Source of the DNA: Escherichia coli
GTDB lineage: Bacteria > Pseudomonadota > Gammaproteobacteria > Enterobacterales > Enterobacteriaceae
Direction: 5' to 3' (one strand)
Length of the DNA stretch: 64,000 nt
Assembly: GCF_044324875.1 (NCBI RefSeq)
Contig: NZ_CP172185.1
Shown here: in pieces, positions 58,892 to 61,356 of the stretch
Layout of the letters: every line of letters begins with the position of its first letter
How positions within the stretch are numbered: the stretch's first letter is position 1
The notes under the pieces: model-generated
The model's database searches: none
What the model saw: only the letters and a program-made list of their open reading frames with translations
What the model was told of the DNA's origin: nothing
Translations under genes and position numbers: made by a program

Positions 58892-58914
58892 TCACTACAT
58901 GTGTTAAATATTGA

Positions 58915-58945
58915 AACGGGCGTATAACACGCCCGTTGTTTTATT
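58915..58945 (+). terminator. icd rho-independent terminator
   Basis: aacgggcgt-ataac-acgcccgtt followed by gttttatttat. Confidence 0.8.
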
Positions 58946-58993
58946 TATGTGGATATTATTAATAGCATGTCGAGCATATTTATATGAAGCCCA

Positions 58994-59317
58994 TTACTTG
59001 AGTCCATATGGGCATATTTTTATAATACAACTATTATGCAAACATTTATTTGGTATTTCGCTTTCTCCTGGAGGACACTCTTGACTGCTTTTGAGTAAAC
59101 TCCATAAATCCTTGTTGAATGGTGTTATGTTATAAATAGTAATAGGGTATTCTTTATCCTTAAAGATAATACCAGACTTAACCGGTGTAAATATACTTCC
59201 AGGAGGGAGAAATATAGTAGATTGATACCAGATGATCATTTTCATATCACCCCATATGGCTGAAAAAGATATGCCGCATGTAGGTTGAATTACCGTGTCA
59301 ATTACTATCCACTTCAT
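58994..59317 (-). CDS. Hypothetical small protein in AT-rich segment between duplicated icd-terminator copies
   Basis: 107-aa ORF, Cys-rich, very AT-rich codon usage; may be spurious. Confidence 0.3.
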
Positions 59318-59760
59318 TTGTTATGTCTTATCCCACGGTATTTAATATGGTTCATTAGGATGTTTATTTCTTGATTTTGCATATGAGTATATTACCCCCT
59401 CAAAAAACAAATTAATTAAAAATTAAAACCATTGTTTAGATAAAACAAAATTTAAAGCAAGAAATCTCAATAGATATTAAACAAAATGAGATTTAGTGAA
59501 AACATTAAATTATTCACTTCGTTTTAGATTTGTTTAGCTAAAATGTTATACATTCAAATGACTGAACATCCTGTAATTAAAACATAGCCTTTATACTACT
59601 TTGTGCCAATTTGCTAAACATTATGGTTGGCCTTTTATTTAACGATAATGACGAATATAAGCATAACATGAGAATAAGATTTCAGTTTTTTAGTTATATA
59701 GGAATGGTTTAACCCATTCCTGGCTAAAATACATATAACTGGATGATGACTAAACCAAAA

Positions 59761-59805
59761 CACATGTGCGTTAAGTATTGAAACGGGCGTATGGCACGCC
59801 CGTTG
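59761..59805 (+). repeat. Second, diverged copy of the icd 3'-flank/terminator sequence
   Basis: catgtgcgttaagtattgaaacgggcgtatggcacgcccgttg versus catgtgttaaatattgaaacgggcgtataacacgcccgttg at 58898-58938; IS2 is inserted inside its U-tract. Confidence 0.7.
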
Positions 59806-59896
59806 TAGACTGGCCCCCTGAATCTCCAGACAACCAGTATCACTTAAATAAGTGATAGTCTTAATACTAGTTTTTAGACTAGTCATTGGAGAACAG

Positions 59897-60262
59897 ATGA
59901 TTGATGTCTTAGGGCCGGAGAAACGCAGACGGCGTACCACACAGGAAAAGATCGCAATTGTTCAGCAGAGCTTTGAACCGGGGATGACGGTCTCCCTCGT
60001 TGCCCGGCAACATGGTGTAGCAGCCAGCCAGTTATTTCTCTGGCGTAAGCAATACCAGGAAGGAAGTCTTACTGCTGTCGCCGCCGGAGAACAGGTTGTT
60101 CCTGCCTCTGAACTTGCTGCCGCCATGAAGCAGATTAAAGAACTCCAGCGCCTGCTCGGCAAGAAAACGATGGAAAATGAACTCCTCAAAGAAGCCGTTG
60201 AATATGGACGGGCAAAAAAGTGGATAGCGCACGCGCCCTTATTGCCCGGGGATGGGGAGTAA
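59897..60262 (+). CDS. insC: IS2 transposase InsC (OrfA)
   Basis: [52 protein letters not shown]... matches remembered IS2 InsC. Confidence 0.9.
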
Positions 60263-61125
60263 GCTTAGTCAGCCGTTGTCTCCGGGTGTCGCGTGCGCAG
60301 TTGCACGTCATTCTCAGACGAACCGATGACTGGATGGATGGCCGCCGCAGTCGTCACACTGATGATACGGATGTGCTTCTCCGTATACACCATGTTATCG
60401 GAGAGCTGCCAACGTATGGTTATCGTCGGGTATGGGCGCTGCTTCGCAGACAGGCAGAACTTGATGGTATGCCTGCGATCAATGCCAAACGTGTTTACCG
60501 GATCATGCGCCAGAATGCGCTGTTGCTTGAGCGAAAACCTGCTGTACCGCCATCGAAACGGGCACATACAGGCAGAGTGGCTGTGAAAGAAAGTAATCAG
60601 CGATGGTGCTCTGACGGGTTCGAGTTCCGCTGTGATAACGGAGAAAAACTGCGAGTCACGTTCGCGCTGGACTGCTGTGACCGTGAGGCACTGCACTGGG
60701 CGGTCACTACGGGCGGCTTCAACAGTGAAACAGTACAGGACGTCATGCTGGGAGCGGTGGAACGCCGCTTCGGCAACGAGCTTCCGGCGTCTCCAGTAGA
60801 GTGGCTGACGGATAATGGTTCATGCTACCGGGCTAATGAAACACGGCAGTTTGCCCGGATGTTGGGGCTTGAACCGAAGAGCACGGCGGTGCGGAGTCCG
60901 GAGAGTAACGGCATAGCAGAGAGCTTCGTGAAAACGATAAAGCGTGACTACATCAGTGTCATGCCCAAACCAGACGGGTTAACGGCAGCAAAGAACCTTG
61001 CAGAGGCGTTCGAGCATTATAACGAATGGCATCCGCATAGTGCACTGGGTTATCGCTCGCCACGGGAATATCTACGGCAGCAAGCCAGTAATGGGTTAAG
61101 TGATAACAGGTGTCTGGAAATATAG
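60220..61125 (+). CDS. insD: IS2 transposase InsD (OrfB, DDE domain)
   Basis: 301-aa ORF overlapping insC for -1 frameshift fusion; matches remembered IS2 InsD. Confidence 0.9.
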
Positions 61126-61356
61126 GGGCAAATCCACGTTGTTTTTTATAAATATGTTAACCGCTATAAAATAACGTATAGAAAGTCAAGTGATCACATT
61201 TCAAATATCAAGTTGATAGTATTGATCTGGTGATTATTTATGGGTGGCAATAAAAAGATAGTATTACTCATCCATATGAATAGTCTCTGCACTTTTATTT
61301 CCATTATGCTAATGCCTTACTGAATTATGAAGCATTTTTTAAGCGTCCAACTTTAG

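Follow-up and report, generated by a model that had tools for sequence, protein, structure and literature searches.

An old iraM–ymgK islet between two copies of the icd terminator in Escherichia coli, the second of them recently interrupted by IS2

Downstream of icd in the Escherichia coli DNA that we analysed (the window, a single stretch of 64,000 nucleotides), the icd terminator is present twice, and the two copies enclose about 0.8 kb of AT-rich DNA. This insert is the known iraM/ymgK islet, and iraM is a functional and well-studied gene. We consider it probable that the islet is an old foreign insertion that came to lie just downstream of the icd terminator, that the repeats at its ends enable its loss, and that the IS2 element now found in the second repeat is a recent arrival.

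The first copy of the repeat (T1) occupies 58896–58940 on the plus strand, with a tail to 58944, and contains a hairpin at 58915–58937 that is followed by GTTTTAT. The second copy (T2; 59761–59805, plus strand) retains an intact hairpin at 59782–59804, and its T-tract is now found at 61142–61149, past IS2. The copies are identical at 43 of 45 positions with one 2-nt indel, and their starts are 867 bp apart, which bears out the pair of imperfect repeats of about 45 bp that the initial annotation had described around 0.8 kb of DNA. The 64-kb window has exactly two occurrences of the motif GAAACGGGCGT-N4-CACGCCCGTTG, compared with an expectation of 0 from 100 shuffles, and we estimate from a binomial calculation of our own that a chance match of this kind in the region has a probability of about 1e-15. 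The repeat includes an 18-nt leader that lies outside the hairpin and is identical to the icd 3' UTR. Upstream of the repeat, homology between the flanks of T1 and T2 was not detectable (the score equalled the shuffle mean), and past the T-tract the repeat did not extend (p = 0.91). Because of this second result, we rejected the idea that the flank of T2 is an internally deleted form of F1, as we call the short stretch that separates T1 from the iraM stop codon (58945–58993).

The gene to the left, icd (57641–58891, plus strand), encodes an intact isocitrate dehydrogenase; precisely this protein allele was present in more than 81,000 index blocks and is very common in E. coli. The interval 58945–59760 has a G+C content of 29.7%, compared with 50.5% for icd and 49.0% for the whole window, and is as AT-rich as had been claimed. 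It had been credited with one small open reading frame; this frame is present and is iraM (58994–59317, minus strand), which encodes an RssB anti-adaptor of 107 aa, but the insert also holds a second validated gene, ymgK. The IraM protein scores 170.6 bits against NCBIfam NF007393 (cut-off 121) and is 93–94% identical to E. coli IraM clusters; its gene is orthologous in position to K-12 iraM and is annotated as iraM in K-12 and other genomes. An insert that holds a functional iraM is more than the remnant that it was initially taken for. IraM is a PhoP-induced anti-adaptor of RssB that stabilises RpoS, and the literature describes the upstream region of chromosomal iraM as controlled by PhoP and H-NS; judged from its sequence, the iraM of the window would act in the same way. 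Candidate PhoP-box-like sites with two mismatches are predicted upstream of the gene. The AT-rich region upstream of iraM (59318–59760, minus strand) includes ymgK (59577–59621, minus strand), the product of which has 14 aa (MFSKLAQSSIKAMF). To the right of T2 and IS2 lie F2 (61159–61187), a block that is conserved with the region downstream of icd in Salmonella and marks the ancestral flank of the terminator; ymgL (61194–61304, minus strand), an annotated open reading frame for a 36-aa small protein; and ycgX (61357–61761, minus strand), a DUF1398 gene whose family members are lambdoid-phage morons. The products of ymgK, which is likewise annotated, and ymgL are both small proteins, and YmgK has been detected experimentally (PMC6001520).

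We examined the distribution of this arrangement in 5426 complete E. coli genomes. The full repeat–islet–repeat unit was present in 3863 of them, K-12 included, and was found in e14-free and e14-bearing strains alike; iraM is carried by about 71% of E. coli. Repeat and insert together are the majority spacer between icd and ycgX, and so comparison with other strains gave, within E. coli, essentially the result that the initial annotation had named as speaking against its reading. An exact empty site with a single terminator was found in 1039 of the 5426 genomes; the rows listed are mostly known B2-type strains, and only two clearly distinct empty-site backgrounds appear among them. The sequence of the empty site follows T1 up to and including the loop and then passes into the flank to the right of T2. 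In its B2-type form, one terminator is followed by ATAAATATGTT-AACCG..., and in empty-site strains ymgL is joined directly to the icd terminator. One pair of strains shows recent and precise loss of the islet through the repeats: strain 98210, which has the islet, and XJ6.1, which lacks it, match at 100% identity along 693 nt of left flank and about 600 nt of right flank, and both have a lineage-specific inverted hairpin loop in T1. We propose that T1 and T2 serve as substrates for precise deletion of the islet, which would explain both the observed frequency of iraM and its clean, single-terminator absence in B2-type strains and a few others. For the B2 empty site, two alternatives stand, a primitive state and a deletion.

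T1 has the G+C-rich hairpin and adjoining T-tract of an intrinsic terminator. Its nine pairs, six of them G–C, are followed by GTTTTATTTA and are called by a terminator scan, and the RNA folds at −18.4 kcal/mol (z = −3.8) on the plus strand and at −17.3 kcal/mol (z = −5.2) on the minus strand. The T1 stem is invariant in every strain and phage copy examined, and T1 is likely to be a bidirectional terminator that serves icd on the plus strand and iraM on the minus strand. In the window, T2 has its hairpin intact with IS2 between the hairpin and TTTTTT, and a scan of the window no longer calls it; in L081, a contig with the uninterrupted allele, the G+C-rich hairpin and the T-tract of T2 adjoin. 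Each of the seven cassette-bearing sequences examined has the same three differences between T2 and T1. Further changes in T2 are lineage-specific; in K-12-type and other lineages they include non-compensatory changes in the stem and interruptions of the T-tract, and K-12 T2 folds with z scores of −0.3 and −1.4. This pattern suggests that T2, which is decaying in several lineages, was left as a relic and is probably under little constraint.

A functional duplication in situ would give T2 a different history, in which the copy was kept as a minus-strand terminator for ycgX–ymgL or as an insulator for the iraM promoter, iraM arrived separately and the repeats are unrelated to integration. T2 is indeed positioned, on the minus strand, immediately 3' of ymgL and ycgX and forms a stable fold there (−20.4 kcal/mol, z = −2.5), and its hairpin is intact both in the window and in several lineages. 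However, the strong T-tract of T2 is on the plus strand, which has no gene in need of it, and on the minus strand there is only UUUCAAUACUU. The decay of stem and T-tract, the 18 nt of icd 3' UTR carried outside the hairpin and the direct junction of ymgL with the icd terminator in empty-site strains also argue against this history, and we regard it as unlikely.

Outgroup species have a single terminator. In Salmonella, C. koseri, C. freundii and Klebsiella, icd is followed by one terminator and no iraM. The match of F2 to the Salmonella icd downstream region has a score of 33, which was reached by 0 of 2000 shuffles, and in Salmonella the block follows the T-tract after 14 nt, compared with 11 nt in E. 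coli; given this conserved block, the single-terminator arrangement is colinear with the outgroup. F1 has outgroup likenesses of its own, as the block at 58955–58988 is similar to what immediately follows the icd terminator in Citrobacter koseri and Salmonella (for C. koseri, p of about 0.0025 from 2000 dinucleotide shuffles). The resemblance suggests either that a captured enterobacterial icd flank came in with the foreign DNA or that F1 is vertical and the insertion occurred ~45 nt further to the right. In a collection of species-representative genomes, from which E. coli proper seems to be absent, the terminator motif had 0 matches. Matches to YcgX in that collection are four paralogous loci with neither icd nor bluR nearby, and we did not accept them as orthologous; the E. 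albertii relative of YcgX is a prophage moron and was set aside for the same reason. Relatives of BluR go from E. coli (99%) straight to Citrobacter (84%), and in C. freundii the locus does not adjoin icd.

These comparisons also bear on whether there was ever an insertion. The islet could be native Escherichia DNA that was inherited vertically, with the repeat produced by local duplication and the single terminator of B2-type strains by secondary deletion. The likeness of F1 to outgroup icd flanks, a divergence of the islet among lineages that equals or exceeds that of old DNA, and the documented recent deletion through the repeats in 98210 and XJ6.1 are all compatible with this. Against it, the four outgroups lack iraM after their one terminator, the Salmonella post-terminator sequence runs directly into the block that is 3' of T2 in E. 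coli, and the islet combines its low G+C content with relatives that are solely phage genes. We therefore think it quite improbable that the islet is native.

Homologues of IraM with 56–71% identity are found in Stx2 phages and E. albertii prophages, between Q/stx and the nanS–lysis genes. The IraM/PmrD-like morons of lambdoid phages, such as those of the Stx2 phages, are proteins of 107–111 aa, each from a single gene that is transcribed against the neighbouring phage late genes. Chromosomal iraM differs from them in having its own upstream region, and the homology of islet DNA to phages is confined to the iraM ORF, at about 72%. In the 443-bp region upstream of iraM, we found no phage match except T2 itself. 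IMG/VR matches to the T2 motif came from contigs of E. coli prophage flanks in which the arrangement is the ordinary one, and we rejected them as phage-borne copies of T2. IraL of UPEC is a horizontally acquired paralogue of IraM. The terminator is also carried by phages: phage 21 and many lambda-like phages contain the last roughly 160 nt of icd and this terminator, beside arm sites and int, and phage homology to the icd-terminator region stops at the same ...GTTGTTTTAT. In icd-targeting prophages (e14 and phage 21), a phage-borne icd 3' region with its terminator gives rise to direct repeats around AT-rich or foreign DNA, as is seen here. However, integration of e14 or phage 21 copies about 165 nt of icd coding sequence and creates an icd' pseudogene, neither of which is true of the islet repeat; unlike the phage att duplications, it starts 5 nt past the icd stop codon, measures about 45–49 nt and comes without int or xis.

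We propose that the islet DNA came, most probably, from a lambdoid phage, and that the incoming DNA brought its own copy of the icd terminator in the manner of icd-targeting phages. The islet would as a result have a 45-nt direct repeat at each end, the two behaving as attL and attR do; the mode of insertion may have been Campbell-type or illegitimate. Islet DNA is 92–99% identical among lineages, a divergence that makes the event old, and traces of the mechanism may therefore be gone. Several features agree with an att-flanked islet, namely direct repeats at both ends with a precise one-repeat empty site elsewhere, an empty site that matches an outgroup species (Salmonella), and atypical composition together with mobile-element-related cargo in the form of the IraM phage homologues. 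Within the islet, we found no integrase or recombinase gene or remnant, no att arm sites and no other phage remnant; its ORFs are iraM and ymgK only. The initial annotation had suggested a past integration that was later reduced by deletion. The first part is supported by the empty site, the colinearity with Salmonella, the phage morons and the phage-borne terminator; with no integrase remnant and no phage homology beyond the iraM ORF, the deletion step can only be inferred.

A more speculative view, to which we give little credence, treats the islet as a miniature att-flanked cassette. Its precise gain and loss would repeatedly link and unlink PhoPQ signalling and RpoS stability, the iraM-less state of B2-type strains would represent one excision, and catalysis might be site-specific, at a core in the 3' half of the terminator, instead of relying on chance homology. 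It is very unlikely that such a cassette is still mobile and is moved site-specifically at the terminator core by an integrase acting in trans, for example from an icd-targeting prophage. In its favour, icd-targeting integrases are common in E. coli, and both the B2-type empty sites examined and that of XJ6.1 show a precise junction, in which the crossover falls on one and the same side of the repeat, right of the loop. However, the icd homology of phage-21-type phages starts about 160 nt upstream in icd and their annotated arm sites lie beyond the terminator, so that the terminator is not the crossover site. By our own estimate, two crossovers in one of two identity blocks of ~15 nt are expected about 25% of the time under homologous recombination or slippage. 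The islet also has no integrase gene, and the rows listed show only two clearly distinct empty-site backgrounds.

As initially noted, e14 is absent from the window. The intact icd is contiguous with T1 and iraM, there is no icd' duplication and no e14 gene between icd and iraM, and the e14 right-end genes tfaE, pinE and mcrA have no match in the window. The integration point of e14 is 163 bp inside icd (PMC6379469). In K-12, the T1–iraM–ymgK–T2 unit is directly to the right of the e14 icd' pseudogene and outside e14; the islet is thus not the occupant of the e14 site, as it had been thought to be. The K-12 iraM (ycgW/elbA) locus, icd'–iraM–ymgK–ymgL–ycgX, has the same genes in the same order and orientation and both terminators, with 93.6% identity over 957 nt; it differs from the window in having e14 in icd to the left, a degraded T2 hairpin (GGAC...GGCC) and no IS2 at the site. 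That the islet is the remnant of an e14-like prophage at the e14 attachment site, standing in for e14, has on its side that icd is a hotspot of phage integration, that homologues of IraM are phage morons and that K-12 iraM is called 'found on the e14 prophage' in the literature (PMC4045071), but it is scarcely credible when K-12 has e14 and the full unit side by side, when integration of the e14/phage-21 type leaves an icd' duplication of roughly 165 nt and nothing icd-like is present upstream of T2 (score equal to the shuffle mean), and when e14 genes are missing from the window.

The IS2 insertion in T2 is recent and is the part of the locus that is special to this strain. The element (IS3 family, 1331 bp; 59806–61136, plus strand) has overlapping insA (59897–60262) and insB (60220–61125) genes, imperfect terminal inverted repeats with arms that include 59815–59847 and 61096–61128, and the IRL motif TAGACTGGCCCCCTGAATCTCC at 59806. 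Its InsA repressor scores 276 bits against NF006928 (cut-off 229), and its InsB DDE transposase scores 713 bits against NF006918 (cut-off 597). From end to end, its sequence is that of IS2 copies in other E. coli (100% identity), and the element shares length, overlapping genes, imperfect inverted repeats and 5-bp duplication with the known IS2, from which it differs in insertion site alone. As initially reported, it sits between the T2 hairpin and its T-tract and is bordered by an intact CGTTG duplication (59801–59805 on the left and 61137–61141 on the right). L081 matches the window at 100.000% identity along 4007 nt of left flank and 2864 nt of right flank, and has the uninterrupted site with a single CGTTG; it is the exact pre-IS2 allele, and one CGTTG on identical flanks proves the 5-bp target duplication. 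The IS2 junction of the window was found in 0 of the 5426 complete E. coli genomes and was unseen at the places shown in contigs with identical Icd or IraM alleles. We envisage that IS2 transposed lately into T2, between hairpin and T-tract, with its usual 5-bp duplication. The element is 488 bp away from the iraM start codon, on its upstream side. A hybrid promoter formed with the right end of IS2 was judged unlikely from the spacing, by inspection only; the insertion is probably without phenotypic effect, and would be neutral or at most modulate the regulation of iraM.

Much of this locus is ordinary: iraM, ymgK, ymgL and the IS element were already known, and so was the patchy occurrence of iraM. 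iraM is often said to be on e14; the e14-free window and the population data instead place it in a separate 0.8-kb islet with repeat boundaries of its own and an exact empty site. Deletion through the 45-nt terminator repeats offers a simple structural account of the absence of iraM in UPEC-type strains such as CFT073. The IS2 allele, confined to this strain on a haplotype that is otherwise 100% identical, may serve as a strain marker, and could provide a natural test of the part played by DNA about 0.5 kb upstream in the control of iraM by H-NS and PhoP.

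Downstream of an intact icd (57641-58891, plus strand), the icd terminator is present as two repeat copies. Copy 1 (58896-58940), a 45-nt segment starting 5 bases past the icd stop, reads ACATGTG TTAAATATTGA AACGGGCGT-ATAAC-ACGCCCGTT G; copy 2 (from 59761 to 59805), 867 bp on from the copy 1 start, is identical at 43 of 45 positions, with one 2-nt indel. Across the 64-kb window the hairpin motif has exactly two occurrences against none expected by chance, and no similarity between the surroundings of the two copies was detectable upstream of the repeat or past the T-tract. The DNA between them (the islet) has 29.7% G+C versus 50.5% for icd. 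It contains one small ORF, iraM (58994-59317, minus strand; NCBIfam NF007393, 170.6 bits, cut-off 121), the product of which is 93-94% identical to E. coli IraM clusters, and, upstream of iraM, the 14-aa ymgK (59577-59621), identical to a protein detected in K-12. A terminator scan of the window called copy 1 and missed copy 2, because IS2 sits between the copy 2 hairpin and its TTTTTT tract. All factual parts of the initial annotation were confirmed: the duplicated terminator, the AT-rich insert with a single small ORF, the IS2 with a CGTTG duplication in the U-tract region of copy 2, and the absence of e14, the genes of which are missing from the window.

The suggestion that this segment fills the e14 site did not hold. 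The e14 prophage recombines 163 bp inside icd, and K-12 carries the whole unit, including both repeats, directly beyond the right end of e14, which is marked by the icd' pseudogene; the segment is therefore not at the e14 site. A query running from the icd end to copy 2 was at least 80% covered in 3863 of 5426 complete E. coli genomes, K-12 among them, and the repeat-islet-repeat unit is the normal, majority arrangement of the species. The literature places iraM "on the e14 prophage" (PMC4045071), which shares the same imprecision. The locus was already known and its novelty is low; iraM is a known functional gene and, according to published work, encodes an RssB anti-adaptor that stabilises RpoS under active PhoPQ and is repressed by H-NS. 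We found no explicit description of the repeat boundaries or of the empty site in the accessible literature.

We searched for an empty site using a synthetic query that joins the icd end and a single terminator to the sequence after copy 2, and 1039 of the 5426 genomes contained a match over its whole length. A spread sample of these included Nissle 1917, ST131, O127:H6, NU14 and ATCC 11775, which from their names we take to be phylogroup B2, as well as XJ6.1 and JNEC-KY178. All empty sites examined had a single repeat, of copy 1 type through the loop and followed by the copy 2 right flank. As outgroups we compared the sequences downstream of icd in Salmonella, C. koseri, C. freundii and Klebsiella; all four have a single terminator, equally distant from the stop codon, and iraM follows icd in none of them. 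A Salmonella block, AACGGTTATCAAAATAATTTATCAAAACTC, 14 nt past the T-tract matches E. coli AACCGTTATAAAATAACGTATCAAAAGTC, which stands 11 nt past the T-tract of both copy 2 and the empty site, with a score reached by 0 of 2000 dinucleotide shuffles. The single-terminator state is thus colinear with Salmonella, and the islet is therefore an insertion relative to the outgroup. The past integration event that had been proposed survives in this form, as what is probably an old insertion, but not as an e14 substitute: the segment is the majority state and carries a known functional gene. The islet is also old by its divergence among lineages, 2-8%, which exceeds the ~1-1.5% for ycgX or bluR.

Two readings of how the islet arrived accommodate a further likeness, between the 45-nt right flank of copy 1 and the post-terminator sequence of C. 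koseri and Salmonella (ATTATTAGCATTCGAAC...; p ~0.0025, a short match based on one of four comparisons). In one, incoming DNA bearing a terminator and a captured enterobacterial icd flank, resembling an attP module, integrated Campbell-style within the terminator. In the other, this flank is vertical and a terminator-bearing fragment inserted ~45 nt downstream, which requires the B2 state to be a deletion. In phage 21 and many lambda-like phages, the final ~160 nt of icd and the icd terminator lie beside arm sites and int, and phage-chromosome homology ends at ...GTTGTTTTAT, where the similarity of the two copies also ends. IraM homologues (56-71% identity) are found in Stx2a phages, Stx2c phages and E. 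albertii prophages, with the gene alone on the opposite strand, Q/stx on one side and nanS-holin-lysis genes on the other; the YcgX (DUF1398) family occupies an analogous moron slot after Rz. Phage DNA with an icd terminator and phage DNA with an iraM-type moron thus both exist. A direct link to the islet is missing: its phage DNA homology is limited to the iraM ORF (~72%), with no phage match to the 443-bp iraM upstream region and no integrase remnant in the islet.

In a divergent 'E. coli' (GCA_009898965.1; locus L018, 6400-8400), window homology ends 40 bp past ycgX; in place of ymgL, copy 2 and icd come a YmgB-like gene (86 aa), an IraM that is itself divergent (79.6% nucleotide identity) and a gene of TrkH type, which form an alternative islet in the equivalent position. 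O157:H7 OK1 (L019, 50 kb) has a phage-21-type lambdoid prophage at icd and wholly lacks the iraM-ycgX-bluRF-...-ycgH stretch, with other DNA (catalase and ferritin-like genes, ISEc8, ompT, IS1203) as far as minCDE. In strain PSJ-32-1 (L024, 2262-3030), an IS1 within the region upstream of iraM borders a truncated EAL-domain gene and ymgF, indicating an IS1-mediated deletion from ymgK through most of the ycg/ymg cluster. In lambdoid prophages, YcgX homologues are encoded as morons on the opposite strand, with the lysis genes on one side and terminase (nu1) on the other (ybcV in O157, E. albertii prophages; L016/L017 and L019, 38936-39346), so ycgX beside the islet (61357-61761) may itself be a phage relic. 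Upstream of icd, the stretch ~34400-57600 of the window (pepT, phoQ, phoP, purB onwards) contains an island that encodes a tyrosine recombinase and a helicase of the RepA family and is found in few E. coli genomes; a 24.6-kb query was at least 80% covered in only 222 of 5426 E. coli genomes, with identity below 99% in all best matches. A perfect PhoP-box direct repeat, GGTTTATTTAATGTTTA (53020-53036, minus strand), lies directly upstream of a 223-aa ORF (52287-52958) that we take to be phoP, and presumably marks the autoregulated phoPQ promoter.

The new element here is a private IS2 allele. The only IS2 in the window (59806-61136, 1331 bp) carries plus-strand insA and insB genes that score above their NCBIfam cut-offs, is 100% identical over its length to other E. 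coli IS2 copies and is flanked on both sides by CGTTG; ymgL, ycgX, bluR and bluF lie to its right. The copy 2/IS2 junction was covered in 0 of 5426 genomes and was not seen, among the matches listed, in contigs with identical Icd or IraM alleles. One such contig, GCA_027920925.1 (L081), matches the window at 100.000% identity over 4007 nt left of IS2 and 2864 nt right of it, and has the uninterrupted site, ...GCCCGTTGTTTTTTAT..., where CGTTG occurs once. This makes the insertion recent and private, and its 5-bp duplication is the canonical one. Its distance upstream is 488 bp from the iraM ATG and 184 bp from ymgK, and its transposase genes face away from iraM; H-NS or PhoP control of iraM could conceivably be influenced, and the insertion is probably neutral.

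The two repeats have evolved differently. The copy 1 stem is unchanged in all chromosome and phage copies examined, and copy 1 gives a good fold on either strand, as a bidirectional terminator of icd and the convergent iraM should. Copy 2 differs from it by a CG insertion, A>G, and AA>GG in the loop; all three differences are common to 7 of 7 cassette-bearing sequences examined, which suggests that they date from the insertion. In K-12-type copy 2, one stem pair has gone from G:C to A·G (GGAC...GGCC), a non-compensatory double change (L001, 3428-3453) also seen in many IMG/VR loci (L040, L041, L047 and others), and K-12 copy 2 folds no better than shuffled sequence. Another lineage has a single arm change, and in others the T-tract is broken by a G. 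Copy 2 is, we conclude, a weakly constrained relic.

The sole change seen in copy 1 is in one lineage, where the loop is exactly inverted, at ~664-689 in strain 98210 (L025) and 2624-2649 in XJ6.1 (L007), equivalent to 58913-58938 of the window; it reads GGGCGTGTTATACGCCC, the reverse complement of the loop, in place of GGGCGTATAACACGCCC, as expected from intra-hairpin template switching. Strain 98210 has the islet and XJ6.1 lacks it, yet their flanks agree at 100% identity (693 nt on the left, ~600 nt on the right). Read most simply, XJ6.1 lost the islet recently and precisely, by deletion through the identical ~14 nt that lie right of the loop. With identical flanks and a common inverted loop in these two strains, the repeats do matter as recombination substrates.
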